Of a stretch of DNA of 64,000 nucleotides, positions 46,624 through 59,144 are shown piece by piece. The notes under the pieces were generated by a model, which worked only from the letters and a program-made list of their open reading frames with translations, did no database searches and was not told the DNA's origin. Position 1 is the first letter of the stretch, and every line of letters starts with the position of its first letter. The translations under genes were made by a program, and so were the position numbers. Source of the DNA: Thermoplasmata archaeon (GTDB taxonomy: Archaea > Thermoplasmatota > Thermoplasmata > GCA-020350865). The stretch is from positions 4,685,060 through 4,749,059 of the forward strand of contig CP070751.1 in NCBI GenBank assembly GCA_020348445.1. Reading direction: 5' to 3'.

Positions 46624-49600
46624 ATGAGGGGAAAAGGCAAAGGTGTTTTAGCAGTTAAGAAAGCAAATTCCATAGTGGTTATGACACTGCTGGTCATTGG
46701 AACACTTGTTCTGGCGGTAACTCCTCCGGGAGAGGAACCAGACCACATCGAAGACTGGCCCGATGAAAGCGAATGGATAAATTACACATTCAGGGGAGAG
46801 AGAATCAGAGACTGGGAGGACAAACCCTATGAAAACGATCCCACCCATGGGATTGCCAATGTCCAGCCAGATGCCGTGGATATTGCCTCTGGTGTGGATG
46901 CAAGTGGTGGTGGGGCGGAGAACAATCCCGGTAACTTTACTTCTGTCCAGTACGTTTATAAGGATGTTAACGGGGACAGCGTAGGTTGTGAAAATATAGA
47001 GGATGACTGGCTGTTTCTGAGAATGAGGGTTGCAGGGGATCCTAGAGCAACAGGTGGAAAGTACATGTACAAGGCATATCACTGGGACATACTCATTGAA
47101 GTCGATGGTGACCTATGGAGTGAATTTGTTGTGGATTTGAATGGTGGGGACGGATATTTCAAATGGGGTACCGTGGGAGTATACTACAACAATACAGAGG
47201 ACTACGAGTACGATCCAGACAATGATTGGGTTTGGTTGCAGGAGGCCAGTAAGGCAAAAAATAAATTCACAAGACCTGTTTTAATAGATTACGGAACCGA
47301 CACAGAAGATGATGATCAGTGGTGGATCGAATACAGGATTCCTGTAACTGCCTTCACTGATTATGACGACAACCAACTTTTGTGCTCGAATACGGGTTTT
47401 CTTTTGTTCTTCAGCACATCGGCATCACTGACCAATCCTCTTCAGAAGGATTGGATGGGCGAGTACATTTTTGGACAGCCAGCCAATATAACAGTTGAAA
47501 AGACTGTTGAGGAAGGAACTGTGGCACCAGGGGATACACTGCATTATAAAATCTATTACAACAACACCGGAGATTTCAATGCAAATCACGTGTGGGTAAA
47601 TGATACAATTCCTGAATACACCACCTTTTTAGATTGCTCCCCAGCCTACGATTCAGTGGATGATCGCACATACAGATGGTATTTTACAGATGTGGAACCT
47701 GGCAATTATACAATATATCTAAATGTGACAGTTGACGCCGGTGTTCCAGATGGAACTATACTGAGAAACGTAGTTGCACTGAACTACACAGACCATCAGG
47801 ATAACGAACTACCAGGTTCTGAGGATGAGACAGAAAATCCAGTGGAAGGGCCTGATATGACCTTTACGAAGGAGGCGGATTCTTCAACTGCCAATCCTGG
47901 GGATACTTTAACATATACCCTTACATATGAAAATACAGGCAGTGGTGGGGCGTATAATGTTGTGATAACTGACACGCTACCTGATTACGTAGAACTTGAT
48001 TATAGTGATCCAGCACCAACTTCAGAGGTCGGCAATATCCTAACTTGGGAATTTGATGTTGTACCGGGAAACAGTGTAAATTACATCTACATTTATGTTA
48101 TCGTGGATCCTTACACAGAGGACGGCACATATCTTGTCAATTACGCAACGTTGGAATATGAGGATGTTAACGAGAATCTATATCCATCATTGGAGGACTG
48201 GGCAAATGTCACAGTCACGGCTCCCATGATGACAATTTCCAAGACTGCTGATGTCGCAGAGGCCGATCCTGGAGATTATATAACCTACACTATTGAATAT
48301 GAGAACACAGGTTCCGGTGACGCAACTGATGTTGTGATTGTGGATACAATAGATCCTGATACAACTTTTGTAAATGCAACCCCGGCTCAATCCATCAAAG
48401 TTGGAGATGTAATTACCTGGAACATCGGGACCGTTTCCGGCGGTGGCTCGGGAACCATAATCCTGATAGTGAAGGTGGACGCATATGTCGAAGACGGAAT
48501 TATCCTGAGAAATACAGTGACCCTGAATTACAATGATGCCAACGGAAATCCACAGGACGAAGAATCAGATTACGTGGATGTCACAGTCACTGCGCCTGAT
48601 ATGACAATATCCAAGACTGCTGATAAAACAGAAGCAAATCCCGGAGATCAGATAACCTATACCATTGAATACGAGAATACAGGAACCGGTGACGCAACTG
48701 ATGTCGTGATTGTGGATACAATAGATCCCGACACGACCTTTGTCAGTGCAAGTCCATCTCCATCCAGTGTAGTTGGAGATGTTATTACCTGGAACTTTGG
48801 GACAGTTTCCGGTGGTGGCTCGGGAACCATAACCCTGATTGTGGAGGTAGACCCATATGTTGAAGATGGAACAGTTCTGACAAACACAGTGACCCTGAAC
48901 TATGATGACGCCAATGACAATCCACAGGACGAAGAAACAGACAGCGTAGATGTCACAGTAACTGCGCCTGGTATGACAATTACCAAGACTGCCGATGTCT
49001 CAGAGGCCGATCCTGGAGATTATATAACCTACACAATCTCCTACGAGAACACAGGTTCTGGGGATGCAACAGATGTTGTGATTGTGGACACAATAGATCC
49101 AGATACGACTTTTGTAAATGCAACACCGGCTCCATCCAGCGAAGTTGGAGATGTTTTAACCTGGAATATAGGCACTGTTTCCGGAGGGGGCTCTGGAATT
49201 ATTATACTCATTGTGAAGGTGGATGCCTATGTTGAAGATGGGACTATATTGAGAAATACAGTAACCCTGAACTATGATGACGCCAACGGCAATCCACAGG
49301 ACGAGGAATCAGATTACGTGGATGTCACTGTAACTGCACCTGATATGACTATCTCCAAGACCGCTGATGTCTCAGAAGCCGATCCCGGAGATCAGATAAC
49401 CTACACCATTGAATATGAGAATACAGGAACCGGTGACGCAACTGATGTCGTGATTGTTGATACCATCCATCCAGATACAACCTATGTCAGTGCAACTCCG
49501 GCTCCATCCAGTATAGTTGGAGATGTTATTACATGGAACCTCGGAACCGTTTCTGGAGGAGGCTCAGGAAGCATAACCTTGATTGTGGAGGTTGATGCAT

Positions 49601-52600
49601 ATGTTGAAGACGGAACTGTTCTGACAAATTTTGTTACACTTAACTATGACGATGCCAACGGCAATCCACAGGACGAAGAAACAGACAGTGTGGATGTAAC
49701 AGTCACTGCGCCTGTTATGACAATCTCCAAGACTGCAGATGTCTCTGAAGCCGATCCTGGCGATTATATAACCTACACCATCGAATACGAGAATACAGGT
49801 TCCGGTGATGCAACAGATGTGGTAATTGTTGATACCATAGATCCCGATACGACTTTTGTAAATGCAACTCCGGCTCCATCCAGCAAAGTTGGAGACGTAA
49901 TTACCTGGAATATCGGCACTGTTTCCGGTGGAGACTCTGGAATCATTATTCTCATTGTGAAGGTGGATGCATATGTTGAAGATGGAACTATTTTAACAAA
50001 CACTGTGACCCTTAACTACGATGATGCCAACGGTAATCCACAGGACGAGGAGACAGATTGTGTAAAAGTCACTGTTACTGCACCCGATATGACAATTTCC
50101 AAGACAGCTGATGTCTCAGAAGCCGATCCTGGCGATTATATAACCTATACCATCGAATACGAGAACACGGGTTCCGGTGACGCAACTGATGTGGTAATTG
50201 TTGATACCATAGATCCTGATACGACTTATGTAAATGCAACTCCGACTCCATCGAGTATAGTTGGAGATGTAATCACATGGAATATTGGGACTATCGCAGG
50301 AAGGGACGCAGGGAGCTTCTCCCTGATTGTGAAGGTGGATGCATATGTTGAAGATGGAACCATCCTGAGAAATACCGTGACCCTGAATTACGATGATGCT
50401 AACGGAAATCCACAGGACGAAGAGTCAGATTACGTGGATGTAACTGTCACTGCACCTGATATGACAATCTCCAAGACTGCAAATGTCTCAGAGGCCGATC
50501 CTGGCGATTATATAACCTACACCATCGAATACGAGAACACGGGTTCCGGTGACGCAACAGATGTCGTGATTGTTGATACCATAGATCCAGACACGACTTA
50601 TGTGAATGCAACTCCAGCTCCATCGAGCATAGTTGGGGATGTTATAACCTGGAATATCGGTTTGGTGGCCAAAGAAACCGGCGGGAGCATAGAATTGATA
50701 GTAAAAGTGGATATTGGTACACCCGACGGTACATTACTATGCAATTATGTTACTCTCAACTATGATGATGCTAATGGAAATCCACAACCTGAAGAAAGCG
50801 ATTGTGCAGATGTAACTGTTACAGCCCCGAAAATGACCTTCAAAAAATCTGCAGATGTCACACATGCAGATCCTGGGGATCCAATTGTATACACCCTGAC
50901 CTATGAAAACAAGGGAAGCGGAGATGCAACACTTGTTGTTGTTACGGACACCATACCTTCTGATGTGACCTATGTGAGCTCAAATCCAGTCTATGACAGT
51001 GTTAGTGGAAACACCTATACATGGAACATAGGAACTGTTGCAGGATATTCCAGCGGCACCATCACATTAACAGTCAAGGTAAATGTTGGTGTCGCCGATG
51101 GCACAGTGCTTCACAACGAGGCCACATTGGATTATGCAGATGCAAATGGTAACTACTATCCACAGCTTCAAGATGATGCAGACGTTACTGTCACTGCCCC
51201 TGACATGACCATTACCAAAACAGCCAATGTAAGCGAGGTGGATCCAGGGGACACTATTGTATATACCCTATTTTATGAAAACCATGGAAGCGGTGTTGCC
51301 ACAGATGTTGTTGTGACAGATACAATACCTTTGCACACGACTTTTGTAATCTCAGATCCAGTTCATGACAGCGTTAGCGGAAGGACATATACATGGAATA
51401 TCGGAACTGTTGCTGGATATGGCAGCGGGACAATAACAATAAATGTCACAGTGGATGCTGGAACACCTGATCAAACAGTATTACGCAACGACGCTACATT
51501 GGATTACGACGATGCCAATGGTAATCCCTATCCCCAGGAAACAGATTATGCCTGTGTTACAGTTACGGCCCCGGAAATGAGCATCACAAAAACAGCAAAT
51601 GTCGAAACTGCAGACCCTGGTGATCAAATAACATATACAATCGTTTTTGAAAACAGTGGAACTGGAAATGCAACCAATGTCTGGATAAATGATACGATCC
51701 CTGCCGATACAACTTATGGTTCTTCATCGCCAACTTATGATTACAACAATGGCGATACCTACATGTGGTATTATGCTCTCATTGGACCGGGTGCCTCGGT
51801 AACCATTTCCATTGTAGTTAAGGTGGATGTGGGTACTCCTGACAAAACACTTTTGCATAACTCTGTGACCCTGGATTATGCCGACGACAATGGTAATCCA
51901 TTACCACAGGAATCGGATTTTGCTAATGTCAATGTTACAGCACCTGTAATGACCATTATAAAGTCAGCTGATGTTTCTTATGCAGACCCAGGTGATACGA
52001 TTGAATACACAATAGAATATGAAAATACAGGATCCGGGTGGGCCTCACTTGTTGAGATCGTCGATACGATACCTGCTGATACGACCTTTTTAAACTCAAC
52101 GCCCTCACCTACCAGCTCCGCCGGAGATGTATATACCTGGACAATAGGTGATGTAGCACCAGGTGCAAGCGGGACCATAACAATTATAGTGACAGTGGAT
52201 GTGGGAACTGCTGACGAAACACTGCTTCACAATGTTGCCACTCTTGATTATGCAGATGCAAACGGCAATTACTATCCGCAGGAAAGTGATTATGCAGATG
52301 TCATCGTTACAGCGCCTGATCTTTCGATTATGAAGACCGCGAACATGTCATTAGCAAATCCCGGGGATACGATTGAGTACACAATCGAATATGAGAATTC
52401 AGGAACAGGATGGGCTTCACTTGTCGAGATTGTTGATACAATTCCTGCCGATACTACCTTTGTAGGCTCAACACCCTCACCGGATAGTTCTACTGGAGAT
52501 GTATATACCTGGACAATAGGAGACTTAGCACCAGGTGCAAGCGGGACTATAACCATAACCGTTACTGTGGATGTTGGGACACCTGATCGGACCCTTTTAC

Positions 52601-55600
52601 ACAATGTAGTTACCTTGGATTATGCAGATGCAAACGGGAACTACTATCCACAGGAAAGCGATTATGCAGATGTTGTAGTCACCGCCCCTGTCATGCACAT
52701 ATCCAAGACAGGTCCCGATTCTGCAACACCTGCCGAGCCAATCCAATACACCATCACGTATTCAAATACAGGATCCGGTCTTGCCACACTAGTTGAGGTT
52801 GTGGATAACCTGCCTGATTATGTTACCTTTGTTTCTGCCACACCAGCTCCCACATCGGTTTCGGGAAATACCTTGACCTGGGAAATCGGAGATGTGGCAA
52901 GCGGAGGAAGCGGTACGATTGTAGTAAATGTTAAAATCGATTTGGTTGTCCCTGATGGCGAAGAGCTGGTTAATTTTGTGACTCTGTACTACTCTGATGC
53001 AAACGGCAATCCTCTTCCACCAGAGAGGGATTCTGTTACAACCACAATAGAGGCTGGATCAATTGGTGATTTTGTATGGCATGATCAGAACATGAACGCT
53101 CTGTACGATCCTTCAGAGCCAGGTGTAGGAGGAATAACTGTTGTGCTTCAGGGAACCACAACTTACGGAGACGCAGTTTATCTGACAACTACAACAGATT
53201 CCAATGGTAACTATCTATTTGGAGGACTTGGACCCGGTGATTATGAGGTGGACCTGGACCTGAGCTGGGGCTGGGCGGTAACCACTCCGCATCCAATATA
53301 TGTCACCCTTGGCATTGGCATGGACTACCTTGATGCTGACTTCGGAATTGTGAAGGCCGAGATAGAAAAAACAGTTTCTCCAGATGTGGCAAAGATCGGT
53401 AATATCCTCCATGTGCATCTATGGGTAAAGAATCCCTTCGACTCTGGTGAGGTTGTGGATACCTTGCCATGGGAACTTGAATACATTGGAAATGCAATTG
53501 ACGATGACGGTGATGGTTTAATAGACGAAGAAAGGCAGGACGGCCTGGACAACGATGGTGACACTCTAATCGACGAGGATGTGGGCAACTTCCTATTCGA
53601 CGGTAACTATATCACAGGCGGGCTCAGCCTCGATGGTAACAAGGTCATATACCAGCTGCCTGGAAAGGGAATATTTACCATCGATTTCGACATCATTGTC
53701 GTGGTGGACCCAGAGGGCGAGAAGTATGTTACAAACCTTGCAGAGATAATAGTGGATGACGAGGTCATGGCATATGACACATACACGATTTTAATCAGAT
53801 ATTCTGGATTTGACAAGTACTTCCTGCCTATAAACGATCCACAGCCGCCACCTGAACCTGGCGAAATTGTGGTGGATGGATCGACTCCCGGCTACTTCTT
53901 CGACTACGGCGACGGTGATGGCATAATAGAGGTTGGGGAGCTTATATTCTGGGTCGTGGAGTACAACATAACAAACAAGTTCAACTACACCTGGACAAAC
54001 GTCAGAATGGAGGACAGATGGGGAGGAGAATATGGTGTCGGTGGAGATGGAGCAGACAACGATAACGACGGTTTAATCGATGAGGAAGCCTTCAACATGA
54101 TGGATGACGACGGTGATGGGAAGATCGACGAGGATATCGATGTCTTATGGCTATCGCAGGGGAGCGTCTCAATTACCCTGAGGGGAACTCCACCTCATAG
54201 CGACAAGGTTTATATGTATTGGGATGTGGGAACTCTTGCACCTGGTGAGACTGCCTTGCTGCGCCTCCCAGTTTTCACTGACAGAAATCCAGGAGACAAT
54301 GTAAACTTCCCCCAGGGCCATCAGAGCTTCAGTTCACCAGGATACTATATCATGAATTCAGGTGGTGTGGTCAAGTGGCTAGACGAAAGGGGAAAGCAGC
54401 ACAGCGCTCATACACTGAGGCTATATACAAATGCAACAAATGGAGGTGGAGATACAGCAACTGGCGTGTATTCAGAGCCAGCCAGCGTGACGGGATATGA
54501 GCTGCGGTACAATCCCACACTAATGGAGGGAGAGAGCCAGACCTTCCAGGTTGAGCTTTCAAATCCGTCAGAACTTGGAGTGACTGTTTTCTGGTATCTA
54601 GACGGTGAATTTGTTGGCCAGGGACCTACTTTCGAATTCATTGCTCAAGAAGCAGGGACATATATACTGACTGCCAAGACTGCTGGTGAATATCATCTCA
54701 CTGGAGTATCGCTAATTACTGTTGAGGCTGAAGAACATACATGGACAATACAAGTCTTGGAAGATACAGATCCGCAGGCTGTGATTTCCTCACCTCCAGA
54801 TGGCGCAACATTCTACGAGAACGACGAAATAACGTTCGATGGAAGCTCCAGCTACGACCTGGAATCTGCTATTACCTACGAATGGGATCTCGGAGATGGC
54901 TTTACTTCTTCCTTGCCTACACTAACCTATTCTTATGAGAACGAGGGAGATTATATTGTGACCCTGACAGTGACAGATTCCAAGGTACAATCAGGAACTT
55001 CGTACATGACAATTCATATTGTAGCAAGAATGCCCACTGCAATTATCGATAGTCCTACAATGTCCACATTCTACGAAGGTGACACAATTTACTTCAGCGG
55101 CCACGCAACATATCCAGGGGATGAATCCACGCTTACCTACATATGGGACTTCGGACATGGAAACCTCTTCTTTGGCAAGACCATTGATTACACCTTCTCA
55201 GATGATGGTGTGTATACAGTTAGTTTCACAGTAAAAGACTCTGAAGGGCACATGGATACAGTCTTTGTATACCTAACAATCCTGAATGTAGATCCCGAGG
55301 CTACAATTGACGCACCCCTTGAAGCAGAGGTTGAGGAAACAGTTCACTTCAATGCAGAGGCCAGTGATCCCGGTGACGATACCCTGACCTATGAATGGAA
55401 CTTTGGAGATGGAAGCTCCGCATATGGCAAGACTGTTACACACGAATATCTTGCCTCTGGTCAGTACGAAGTAACACTGACTGTCCGTGATGAGGATGGA
55501 GGCCAAAGTGTCATCACAACCATCATTACCATATCAGATAAGCCACCATCCGAACCTCCAATAGAAGAACCGGATGTTCCTGAGGATACCCCAGAATCAG

Positions 55601-55827
55601 GTAACGAGGAACCAACAAAGCCAGAGAAACCATCTTCAGAACCAGAAAAACCACCCCACTCAGGTACCAAACCAAGCGACGATCCAACAAAATCAAATAA
55701 GAACAAGGATAAGAAGCTCGATATTATAGCAGTAATTCCAGTGTATGCAATTCTTGCAGCTATTGTATTTGCAATGAACATATTGACATCTGGGACCTAC
55801 TATCAGATACGAAGAAGGAGATTTTAA
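46624..55827 (+). CDS. Giant (3067 aa) membrane-anchored adhesin-like paralog: same head domain, ~15 DUF11 modules, SdrD-B-like domain, 2 divergent DUF11-like domains with DxDxDG inserts, ~3 PKD domains, Pro/Glu linker, TM helix, basic tail
   Basis: Head domain near-identical to gene 1. GSIGDFVWHD.N.N..YD..EPG (SdrD-B-like); Y.WD(L/F)GDG PKD motifs; C-terminus IIAVIPVYAILAAIVFAMNIL...YYQIRRRRF; GAGGTGA RBS. Confidence 0.9.
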   Translation: MRGKGKGVLAVKKANSIVVMTLLVIGTLVLAVTPPGEEPDHIEDWPDESEWINYTFRGERIRDWEDKPYENDPTHGIANVQPDAVDIASGVDASGGGAENNPGNFTSVQYVYKDVNGDSVGCENIEDDWLFLRMRVAGDPRATGGKYMYKAYHWDILIEVDGDLWSEFVVDLNGGDGYFKWGTVGVYYNNTEDYEYDPDNDWVWLQEASKAKNKFTRPVLIDYGTDTEDDDQWWIEYRIPVTAFTDYDDNQLLCSNTGFLLFFSTSASLTNPLQKDWMGEYIFGQPANITVEKTVEEGTVAPGDTLHYKIYYNNTGDFNANHVWVNDTIPEYTTFLDCSPAYDSVDDRTYRWYFTDVEPGNYTIYLNVTVDAGVPDGTILRNVVALNYTDHQDNELPGSEDETENPVEGPDMTFTKEADSSTANPGDTLTYTLTYENTGSGGAYNVVITDTLPDYVELDYSDPAPTSEVGNILTWEFDVVPGNSVNYIYIYVIVDPYTEDGTYLVNYATLEYEDVNENLYPSLEDWANVTVTAPMMTISKTADVAEADPGDYITYTIEYENTGSGDATDVVIVDTIDPDTTFVNATPAQSIKVGDVITWNIGTVSGGGSGTIILIVKVDAYVEDGIILRNTVTLNYNDANGNPQDEESDYVDVTVTAPDMTISKTADKTEANPGDQITYTIEYENTGTGDATDVVIVDTIDPDTTFVSASPSPSSVVGDVITWNFGTVSGGGSGTITLIVEVDPYVEDGTVLTNTVTLNYDDANDNPQDEETDSVDVTVTAPGMTITKTADVSEADPGDYITYTISYENTGSGDATDVVIVDTIDPDTTFVNATPAPSSEVGDVLTWNIGTVSGGGSGIIILIVKVDAYVEDGTILRNTVTLNYDDANGNPQDEESDYVDVTVTAPDMTISKTADVSEADPGDQITYTIEYENTGTGDATDVVIVDTIHPDTTYVSATPAPSSIVGDVITWNLGTVSGGGSGSITLIVEVDAYVEDGTVLTNFVTLNYDDANGNPQDEETDSVDVTVTAPVMTISKTADVSEADPGDYITYTIEYENTGSGDATDVVIVDTIDPDTTFVNATPAPSSKVGDVITWNIGTVSGGDSGIIILIVKVDAYVEDGTILTNTVTLNYDDANGNPQDEETDCVKVTVTAPDMTISKTADVSEADPGDYITYTIEYENTGSGDATDVVIVDTIDPDTTYVNATPTPSSIVGDVITWNIGTIAGRDAGSFSLIVKVDAYVEDGTILRNTVTLNYDDANGNPQDEESDYVDVTVTAPDMTISKTANVSEADPGDYITYTIEYENTGSGDATDVVIVDTIDPDTTYVNATPAPSSIVGDVITWNIGLVAKETGGSIELIVKVDIGTPDGTLLCNYVTLNYDDANGNPQPEESDCADVTVTAPKMTFKKSADVTHADPGDPIVYTLTYENKGSGDATLVVVTDTIPSDVTYVSSNPVYDSVSGNTYTWNIGTVAGYSSGTITLTVKVNVGVADGTVLHNEATLDYADANGNYYPQLQDDADVTVTAPDMTITKTANVSEVDPGDTIVYTLFYENHGSGVATDVVVTDTIPLHTTFVISDPVHDSVSGRTYTWNIGTVAGYGSGTITINVTVDAGTPDQTVLRNDATLDYDDANGNPYPQETDYACVTVTAPEMSITKTANVETADPGDQITYTIVFENSGTGNATNVWINDTIPADTTYGSSSPTYDYNNGDTYMWYYALIGPGASVTISIVVKVDVGTPDKTLLHNSVTLDYADDNGNPLPQESDFANVNVTAPVMTIIKSADVSYADPGDTIEYTIEYENTGSGWASLVEIVDTIPADTTFLNSTPSPTSSAGDVYTWTIGDVAPGASGTITIIVTVDVGTADETLLHNVATLDYADANGNYYPQESDYADVIVTAPDLSIMKTANMSLANPGDTIEYTIEYENSGTGWASLVEIVDTIPADTTFVGSTPSPDSSTGDVYTWTIGDLAPGASGTITITVTVDVGTPDRTLLHNVVTLDYADANGNYYPQESDYADVVVTAPVMHISKTGPDSATPAEPIQYTITYSNTGSGLATLVEVVDNLPDYVTFVSATPAPTSVSGNTLTWEIGDVASGGSGTIVVNVKIDLVVPDGEELVNFVTLYYSDANGNPLPPERDSVTTTIEAGSIGDFVWHDQNMNALYDPSEPGVGGITVVLQGTTTYGDAVYLTTTTDSNGNYLFGGLGPGDYEVDLDLSWGWAVTTPHPIYVTLGIGMDYLDADFGIVKAEIEKTVSPDVAKIGNILHVHLWVKNPFDSGEVVDTLPWELEYIGNAIDDDGDGLIDEERQDGLDNDGDTLIDEDVGNFLFDGNYITGGLSLDGNKVIYQLPGKGIFTIDFDIIVVVDPEGEKYVTNLAEIIVDDEVMAYDTYTILIRYSGFDKYFLPINDPQPPPEPGEIVVDGSTPGYFFDYGDGDGIIEVGELIFWVVEYNITNKFNYTWTNVRMEDRWGGEYGVGGDGADNDNDGLIDEEAFNMMDDDGDGKIDEDIDVLWLSQGSVSITLRGTPPHSDKVYMYWDVGTLAPGETALLRLPVFTDRNPGDNVNFPQGHQSFSSPGYYIMNSGGVVKWLDERGKQHSAHTLRLYTNATNGGGDTATGVYSEPASVTGYELRYNPTLMEGESQTFQVELSNPSELGVTVFWYLDGEFVGQGPTFEFIAQEAGTYILTAKTAGEYHLTGVSLITVEAEEHTWTIQVLEDTDPQAVISSPPDGATFYENDEITFDGSSSYDLESAITYEWDLGDGFTSSLPTLTYSYENEGDYIVTLTVTDSKVQSGTSYMTIHIVARMPTAIIDSPTMSTFYEGDTIYFSGHATYPGDESTLTYIWDFGHGNLFFGKTIDYTFSDDGVYTVSFTVKDSEGHMDTVFVYLTILNVDPEATIDAPLEAEVEETVHFNAEASDPGDDTLTYEWNFGDGSSAYGKTVTHEYLASGQYEVTLTVRDEDGGQSVITTIITISDKPPSEPPIEEPDVPEDTPESGNEEPTKPEKPSSEPEKPPHSGTKPSDDPTKSNKNKDKKLDIIAVIPVYAILAAIVFAMNILTSGTYYQIRRRRF

Positions 55828-58550: not shown

Positions 58551-58679
58551 GCCACTGAAGGGATTTTGGAACCTAAAACTTTTTGAGACTCGCCTGCGCT
58601 GGCCAATGCTCACCAAAAAGTTTCAGCCATCCAAAAACCTCGCATTGGCCTGCTCGGCTCGCATTTTGAAAAAAGAAAG
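58551..58679. repeat. Duplicate of the tRNA-Thr 3' end (att-like) plus a 114-nt spacer with two interleaved inverted repeats
   Basis: GCCACTGAAGGGATTT at 58551-58566 equals 58681-58696. Inverted repeats at 58576-85/58614-23 (10 bp) and 58601-09/58642-50 (9 bp). Confidence 0.85.
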
Positions 58680-58751
58680 AGCCACTGAAGGGATTTGAAC
58701 CCCTGATCTGCTGATTACGAATCAGCCGCTCTACCGCTGAGCTACAGTGGC
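58680..58751 (-). tRNA. tRNA-Thr(CGT), no intron, CCA not encoded
   Basis: GCCACTG/CAGTGGC acceptor stem, GCTGA-TT CGT AA-TCAGC anticodon arm, GGTTCAAATCC T-loop. Confidence 0.97.
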
Positions 58752-58940
58752 AAATGATGTCCATACGACGTAGCTTAGCTGGCTAGTGGAGACCGAAGGT
58801 TTCCACGAAAGACCGCTGAGCTACAGTGGCATATGTATTTGATGTGAGTAGCTTAGCCGGTGCAGAGGGGCTCGCAATGGCACCTCCAAACCACTAAGCT
58901 ACAGTGGCATCGAGCTTACAGCATGAAATACCACTGAGCT
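58752..58940 (-). repeat. Tandem 78-79 nt hairpin units, each starting with the first ~19 nt of tRNA-Thr
   Basis: On the plus strand ACCGCTGAGCTACAGTGGCA occurs at 58733-58752 and 58812-58831 (exact) and 58890-58909 (2 mismatches), with an 11-nt remnant at 58930-58940. The antisense arm GTAGCTTAGC occurs at 58770-79 and 58848-57. Confidence 0.9.
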
Positions 58941-59144
58941 TAAAAGGGTTTTGTGAAAAATATGAGGTGTTTTTGGCTTTTATAATCCAATTCAATCGAT
59001 ACCCTGATTTTGCCGACGTGATAAGAGATGAGCATATTAAAGAGATTAGAAAAAATCTGATTTTCATCAATATAACTGCTCTCATCTTTCTTACCATCTT
59101 TATTAGGATTAACCACGCCCTTAATAAAAAGTTGTATCGGTAAT

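Follow-up and report, generated by a model that had tools for sequence, protein, structure and literature searches.

The window, by which we mean the whole 64,000-nt stretch of DNA that was analysed, carries an intact, intron-free tRNA-Thr(CGU) gene on its minus strand. The leader of this gene holds two tandem hairpin units built from copies of the tRNA 5′-end, and a different repeat module follows the gene at its 3′-end (Table 1). The genes adjoining the locus are ordinary housekeeping genes; the window also contains an open reading frame of 3067 aa (46624–55827, plus strand), which lies upstream of genes for a Trm5/Tyw2-type tRNA methyltransferase and a radical SAM protein. The genome is a single contig of 5.16 Mb with a G+C content of 41.5%, and its host is an archaeon, as indicated by an RNase P RNA of archaeal type (184.8 bits) together with the long introns at position 37/38 of tRNAs in its relatives. 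In the following, G000 denotes this genome and G001–G004 its congeners; G001 (CP070739.1) is a MAG labelled Methanomassiliicoccales archaeon, and the remaining relatives bear the label Thermoplasmata.

Table 1. Features of the tRNA-Thr(CGU) locus, in window positions.
Feature	Position	Strand	Basis
TATA-like box TTTTAAG of the tRNA-Thr promoter, upstream of unit 2	58939–58945	-	sequence read directly
Unit 2, 78 nt, 'type B' core	58831–58908	-	repeats, fold, G001 homologue
Unit 2: 19-nt tRNA 5′ copy	58908–58890	-	
Unit 2: 29-nt core hairpin	58889–58861	-	
Unit 2: 13-nt antisense arm	58860–58848	-	
Unit 2: 17-nt spacer	58847–58831	-	
Unit 1, 79 nt, 'type A' core	58752–58830	-	repeats, fold, R1 54 bits
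Unit 1: tRNA 5′ copy	58830–58812	-	
Unit 1: 4-nt linker	58811–58808	-	
Unit 1: 23-nt core CGTGG...CCACT, followed by 2 nt	58807–58785	-	
Unit 1: 13-nt antisense arm	58782–58770	-	
Unit 1: 18-nt spacer	58769–58752	-	
tRNA-Thr(CGU), intact, no intron	58679–58751	-	ARAGORN; Rfam tRNA 73.4 bits
3′ module, 128 nt, beginning with a spacer and containing interleaved hairpins	58551–58678	-	repeats D3, I1, I2, I5
3′ module: inverted tRNA 3′-end copy	58649–58630	-	
3′ module: terminal direct 3′-end copy	58570–58551	-	

The first 19 nt of the tRNA, GCCACTGTAGCTYAGYGGT (58751–58733), recur upstream on the same strand as an identical copy at 58830–58812 and as a copy with two changes at 58908–58890, where shuffled windows give an expectation of 0.00 matches. 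A second sequence, CCRGCTAAGCTAC, is antisense to tRNA positions 7–19 and forms the arm of both units (58782–58770 and 58860–58848; 0.02 expected by chance). Repeat positions and shuffles thus bear out the three 5′ copies, with periods of 78 and 79 nt, that were described in the original prediction, and the core helices it named for units 1 and 2 are recovered in the predicted folds. The sense strand is predicted to fold at −25.2 kcal/mol for unit 1 (z −4.3 against shuffles) and at −28.2 kcal/mol for unit 2 (z −3.3), and the opposite strand of unit 1 at −34.1 kcal/mol (z −5.8). The DNA inserted between the direct repeats amounts to 59–60 nt of hairpin and spacer and holds no gene remnants. The direct repeat shared by unit 1 and the tRNA stands as first read, except that it is 24 nt long (96%) and takes in some 5 nt of the leader, and the unit 1 palindrome likewise stands, except that it also extends weakly across the acceptor strand. 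A partial 'third unit' at 58940–58922 had to be given up, being mostly ancestral promoter-leader that is found also in unit-free relatives.

The TTTTAAG box is the sole A/T box at promoter distance, as originally read, and the 70 nt preceding the tRNA itself contain no comparable A/T box. The distance from this box to the first GCCACTG is constant in G001–G004, with or without units. With no A/T box separating the units from the tRNA, co-transcription of the two is likely, in agreement with what had been proposed, and RNase P probably cuts the units off the precursor. In the minimum-energy fold of the precursor (58679–58920, minus strand) the 3′ acceptor strand pairs with the copy in unit 1 and not with the true 5′-end; this predicted misfold has an ensemble frequency of only 0.0013, and we take it as a hint of a possible misfolding cost.

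The inverted repeats of the 3′ module are interleaved in the order 1-2-1′-2′, and related copies are seen behind other tRNA genes in all congeners. At tRNA-Thr its predicted fold is more stable in sense (−44.3 kcal/mol) than in antisense (−34.5 kcal/mol). The module is multi-copy within the genus, with a second copy in the own genome (4099491–4099553), and about 15 of the 57 tRNA genes scanned have a copy of their own 3′-end 97–154 nt downstream. The orthologue in G004 lacks the terminal direct copy, and the copy at tRNA-Thr(UGU) of the same genome has an extra insert of about 100 nt. The 'duplicate 3′-end' that had been offered as a pairing partner for the upstream strands is in fact the terminal copy of this separate multi-copy module.

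Upstream units of the kind seen at tRNA-Thr form a family in this genome. A strict scan of its 57 tRNA genes for upstream copies of the first 16 nt finds 5′ copies at seven tRNAs, and inspection of motifs, model matches and promoters brings the number of tRNA loci with 5′ units to about 14 (Ser, Leu, Thr, Lys, Ala and others). Each unit is tailored to its host tRNA: a direct copy of the first 12–24 nt of that tRNA, often with a few leader bases, is typically followed by a linker of 3–4 nt, the core, an arm complementary to the same tRNA and an A/T-rich spacer. The commonest core is the CGTGG-hairpin-CCACT of unit 1 ('type A'), and simple type A and type B units are uniform in size (78–82 nt). 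R1, a covariance model of type A that covers the core helix only, has 14 strong matches in the genome (E ≤ 3.3e-4), all of them beside tRNA genes. The arms were compared pairwise, as their bulges vary between units and MAFFT with RNAalifold gave no arm register. Unit 2 is only a weak R1 match (22.6 bits); on its sequence it is a divergent, 'type B' member of the family, and the only relatives found for it are at Thr genes of G001 and G002. The CGTGG...CCACT core, with an unpaired C and T at its foot, recurs at unrelated tRNA genes in several species, and core types are common to Thr(CGU) and Thr(UGU) genes. The covariance-model search thus found comparable units at other tRNA loci and in relatives, and the objection that none exist elsewhere fails. 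Matches to GCCACTGTAGC elsewhere in the genome were rejected as family members, being coding protein repeats unrelated to the units.

Some loci depart from the simple arrangement. A Ser tRNA overlooked in the first tRNA scan (4127237–4127480) has three 5′ units; the 5′ copy of the middle one and the spacer preceding it match another Ser gene (2568447–2568562), which suggests exchange between loci. The unit at 3438780–3438892 is flanked by a direct repeat of 63 nt (43 nt of leader and 20 nt of tRNA) and carries a second, unrelated hairpin in place of the tRNA-antisense arm. Across units, the direct repeat comprises 19–63 nt of tRNA and leader.

R1 matches were found in four of the five genomes of the genus (the own genome and three of the four congeners) and in only one of 146 further genomes of the class, that one belonging to another family (151 genomes in total). 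Three more full units came from metagenome contigs scanned by pattern; two of them, close homologues of unit 1, lie at PGK-linked tRNA-Thr(CGU) genes (contigs L100 and L106). At tRNA-Thr genes judged syntenic by the PGK, Trm5 or OB-fold gene, G002, G003 and G004 are unit-free, L100 has a single type A unit, and G000 has a type B and a type A unit; the 5′ flank of the syntenic gene in G001 was masked, and a second, non-syntenic Thr gene of G001 has a type B unit alone. That a syntenic gene can have none, one or two units indicates gain and loss at the DNA level within the transcribed leader. The tRNA-Lys(CUU) gene has two units in G000, one in G001 and three in G002, and copy number, which it had been suggested to compare between strains, thus varies between related genomes at both tRNAs. 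The Thr gene differs within the genus in another respect as well: a canonical 37/38 intron of about 125–160 nt, rich in small hairpins, is present in G001, G003 and the metagenome relative L100 and missing from G000, G002 and G004 (loci compared include L009, L018 and L100), and intron content therefore turns over too. Where units are shared between species they are well conserved: the G001 homologue of unit 2 is identical at 72 of 79 positions, as against 16 of 29 in the adjacent leader, and a Lys unit at 74 of 79. Pairs have been lost from the G001 arm with no compensating change. A search of the literature for units of this kind, made from tRNA ends, found no description, and these hairpin modules apparently constitute an undescribed, lineage-restricted family.

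The two strands of the units differ in character. Among 27 type A units, which are related copies so that their independence is overstated, the arms hold 14 G·U, 13 A·C, 50 Y·Y and 10 R·R mismatches and the cores 34 Y·Y and a single R·R, with no excess of G·U among the stem mismatches. In the same set of related copies, 81% of the unpaired hairpin bases are pyrimidines on the tRNA-sense strand (unit-free tRNA leaders are 50% purine), the opposite strand folds better than the sense strand in 23 of the 27 units, and apical loops are most often C(RAA)G triloops as read on the antisense strand. The core helix is maintained and covaries, with 84% of cells paired and 12 cells changed on both sides as against 5.2 in shuffles (0 of 500). 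The 3′ modules have the opposite polarity, the sense strand being more stable in six of nine and 56% of the unpaired bases being purines, and at both tRNA ends the better-structured strand accordingly runs 5′ to 3′ away from the tRNA. Such two-fold strand symmetry is expected of a DNA process and not of a sense transcript, which we regard as no more than suggestive, the 3′ set being small and heterogeneous. No replication polarity could be read from GC skew. Taken together, the lack of a G·U excess, the pyrimidine-rich unpaired bases and the better antisense fold argue against a device acting as sense RNA and favor strand-specific folded DNA, or else antisense RNA. The palindromes often run on into leader bases, and the template must therefore have been DNA or a primary transcript, not mature tRNA.

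On balance we judge it probable that the units are lineage-restricted palindromic DNA modules of about 80 nt that colonise the ends of tRNA genes and spread by way of their folded antisense strand, and that they are most likely selfish, strand-specific DNA. Of the options in the original prediction, serial insertion of a tiny mobile hairpin at the tRNA 5′-end is the one that fits, with comparable units present at many tRNAs and gained and lost. The anatomy of the units, their membership in a family, their location at tRNA genes only, their presence or absence at syntenic genes, their strand asymmetry and the covariation of the core are observed, and from these we infer a single-strand mechanism and an enzyme acting in trans. 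A 5′ module would have four parts: a direct tRNA copy and an inverted copy of the same segment enclose a conserved core hairpin, and a short A/T-rich spacer comes last. Modules would be gained, lost, duplicated and exchanged as DNA within the transcribed leader, and since the last of them is in every case followed by an unbroken tRNA 5′-end, the gene remains intact. RNase P, cutting at the true 5′-end, would take the modules off the primary transcript, in which they would be passive hairpins of the leader. Spread would use the folded single strand that runs 5′ to 3′ away from the tRNA, i.e., the antisense strand, and the stem of this strand may rebuild the double-stranded end of the tRNA gene in the manner of attC or the CTX-phage attP(+). 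The recombinase or nuclease would act in trans, and the spacer of 17–18 nt could then be regarded as a minimal 'cargo'. The covariation of the core and the conservation of the units would also be expected of a repeat family that is kept by continued copying.

Several observations count against mobile modules, among them that no enzyme could be linked to the units and no parent element was found. The own genome has no match to Cas1, and searches for tyrosine recombinases (PF00589 and an XerA model) gave only two short C-terminal fragments in 5.16 Mb, neither of them near the locus. The fragments (1864225–1864398 and 2412524–2412655) abut tRNA-Leu and tRNA-Met, as expected of integrases split by the integration of elements. 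Each of the five genomes of the genus has genes for Y1 HUH transposases (Y1_Tnp), but so do 13 of 36 other searched genomes that have no units, and one genome with a unit (G031) has no Y1_Tnp gene. An adjacent pair of Y1 HUH genes occurs in several genomes of the genus (own genome 4214534–4215446; G001 2104176–2105081; G003 C249; G002 C138) and is multi-copy in G002. The own genome also has two identical IS200-like elements of 661 nt (2860309–2860969 and 3338969–3339629), and a long hairpin in the 5′-UTR of these elements contains 10 nt (CCTGTAGCGA) that are also found when the inverted arm of the tRNA-Lys units is read in complement. This sequence fits the arm of the Lys unit better than the tRNA itself does; the match is probably due to chance, and we rejected the element as a parent, its end hairpins being unlike the unit core. 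No autonomous parent element was found in the own genome, and the suggested comparison of the cores with viral and plasmid sequences yielded no true unit in the phage, plasmid and IMG/VR collections, the pattern matches in IMG/VR being ordinary tRNAs or bare core matches. That the two arms both correspond to the host tRNA is left unexplained by simple transposition, and a single fixed crossover site is hard to reconcile with a direct copy that may end anywhere between about tRNA positions 12 and 24. Arms that match the host and a copy end that varies are accounted for by no known mechanism.

Among the alternatives, a functional pre-tRNA leader survives best. The units would then act as sense hairpins in processing, folding or stability, as decoys, as a source of small RNAs, or by competing for the 3′ acceptor strand. 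They lie downstream of the only promoter-like box, they are far better conserved between species than the neighboring leader, which could mean a host function and goes against the selfish reading, and the pairing of the acceptor strand with the unit 1 copy in the precursor fold makes interference conceivable; core covariation, unit conservation and this pairing keep a role as RNA alive. On the other hand, the syntenic gene is unit-free in three congeners and copy number varies, and the strand statistics given above are at odds with a role of the sense strand, since the unpaired positions of typical structured RNAs are not so pyrimidine-rich. The regulatory or small-RNA leader that had been envisaged is not supported, the units lacking a G·U excess, folding better in antisense and being dispensable at syntenic loci. 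Nor is the idea that the antisense arm masks the D-arm of the real tRNA: pairing of the arm with the real 5′-end is predicted at −15.4 and −11.9 kcal/mol, and the hairpins of the units themselves, at −25 and −28 kcal/mol, have roughly double that stability and would be the first to form. The uncompensated loss of pairs in the G001 arm also argues against such a role, and an Rfam scan of both strands with E up to 10 returned only the tRNA itself and chance-level matches. We therefore consider a functional leader unlikely.

It seems less probable still, and quite improbable in our view, that the hairpins are by-products of replication or repair (fold-back priming, template switching or slippage) at highly transcribed tRNA genes, with no machinery or mobility behind them. 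Palindromes that reach into leader bases, direct repeats that could expand and contract the arrays and the failure to find an enzyme would all be in keeping with such an origin; but a conserved core is shared by unrelated tRNA genes in several species and gives strong matches at tRNA genes and nowhere else, which calls for a common origin and spread. There is only a small chance that the units are genes for antisense RNAs, in which transcription of the opposite strand would yield small structured RNAs with a 3′ arm able to pair with the tRNA 5′-end. The greater stability of that strand in most units, with a z of −5.8 for unit 1, its unpaired positions being 81% purine and its C(RAA)G triloops are what such RNAs would lead one to expect. 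Strand-specific sites in single-stranded DNA predict the same signature, however; inspection by eye revealed no promoter-like box for the opposite strand within the tRNA or trailer, and presence/absence and variable copy number argue against an RNA that is needed. About equally small is the chance that the units are scars left by the serial integration and decay of larger tRNA-targeting elements (att remnants, CIME-like). Direct repeats of tRNA ends are a hallmark of the insertion of integrative elements, and integrase fragments do abut two tRNA genes elsewhere in the genome, but scars would hardly be uniform in length, homologous in their cores across tRNA genes and species and each equipped with an inverted copy, and here there are no gene remnants inside, the neighbors are housekeeping genes and the boundary of the direct copy varies. 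Finally, excision of a unit plus the next 5′ copy as a spliceable D-loop intron is hardly credible even in a genus that gains and loses the 37/38 tRNA intron, as there is no bulge-helix-bulge geometry: if the D-stem is taken as the outer helix, the 4 bp needed for the central helix do not pair (manual check), and next to GTGG/CCAC there are an internal loop and a 1×1 mismatch in place of two 3-nt bulges on opposite strands.

Returning to mobile modules, we find ~80-nt, gene-less hairpins that are tailored to their tRNA, both in the leader and behind the gene, with turnover between species and a clear strand bias. If they are mobile, they point to an unrecognised way to target and copy the end of a gene, and to an undescribed enzyme; if they act as RNA, they would add a new layer to archaeal pre-tRNA biology. 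In either case, they mislead tRNA finders and predictors of att sites and islands in these genomes. A bolder version, which we put forward as a tentative possibility, is that a recombination system not recognised before docks at the tRNA genes of this lineage; in it, tiny hairpins on the single strand that runs outward would rebuild the gene end as a double-stranded image, insert at either end with two-fold symmetry and acquire arms templated by the host tRNA. The modules might then be minimal 'empty cassettes' of an integron-like system that carries genes elsewhere in Thermoplasmata, driven by an enzyme class not yet connected with it.

The original prediction held that no standard feature class explains the array, and this holds: the intron, C/D-box, casposon, MITE and att-scar classes each miss at least one defining feature. 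Reading the opposite strand as a C/D-box RNA was rejected, although the spacers hold UGAUGU-like boxes: the 'CUGA' is simply D-loop sequence read in complement, and in unit 2 it is CUAA. A casposon-derived mini element was also rejected, there being no Cas1, and the units sitting at the 5′-end with repeats of at least 19 nt instead of a 14–15-bp duplication at the 3′-end. MITEs are likewise small, non-autonomous and multi-copy, with inverted arms and flanking direct repeats, but the direct repeat of the units comprises 19–63 nt of tRNA, far above usual target-site duplications, the arms are host-specific and no parent IS was found. Integrating elements classically land in tRNA genes, but those known to do so carry genes and their own integrase and usually use the 3′ half. 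The units share with such integrative elements the direct repeats of tRNA ends (19–24 nt here), the regeneration of an intact tRNA and the serial events, but they differ in that the inserts are of about 60 nt, gene-less and free of integrase remnants, include an inverted copy, show homology from one tRNA gene to another and lie at the 5′-end inside the leader. REP, BIME and REPIN sequences are extragenic palindromes mobilised by RAYT (Y1 HUH) transposases, and REPs and REPINs offer the closest parallel to the way in which the units persist. Like REPs and REPINs, the units are short, gene-less, hairpin-forming, clustered and persistent in a lineage, with action on one strand and conservation through continued turnover and not through host function; unlike them, they are not scattered in extragenic space without regard to the neighboring gene, as all strong matches are beside tRNA genes, and the Y1 genes present here belong to a kind that occurs in genomes with units and in genomes without.

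Integron attC sites and the attP(+) of CTX phage are folded single-strand substrates of tyrosine recombinases, and for the mechanism they are the nearest parallel. The arms of the units differ from these in copying the end of the host tRNA, and thus from one tRNA to the next, the 'cargo' is only the spacer of 17–18 nt, and the arrays lie inside a tRNA transcription unit in a genome with no intact tyrosine recombinase; at the locus, with its housekeeping neighbors, there is no IntI-type recombinase as beside attI. In architecture the two are comparable. Both can be seen as imperfect palindromes of about 60–140 nt in which a stem of conserved outer arms mimics a double-stranded target and leads through unpaired internal bases to an inner stem with a variable tip, and both show strand asymmetry, tandem arrays by a fixed site and little conserved primary sequence. 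Set beside attC, the units have a comparable layout, in which tRNA-derived arms lead to an internal loop whose unpaired C and T are conserved, then to the 4-bp GTGG/CCAC helix and finally to a top that varies.
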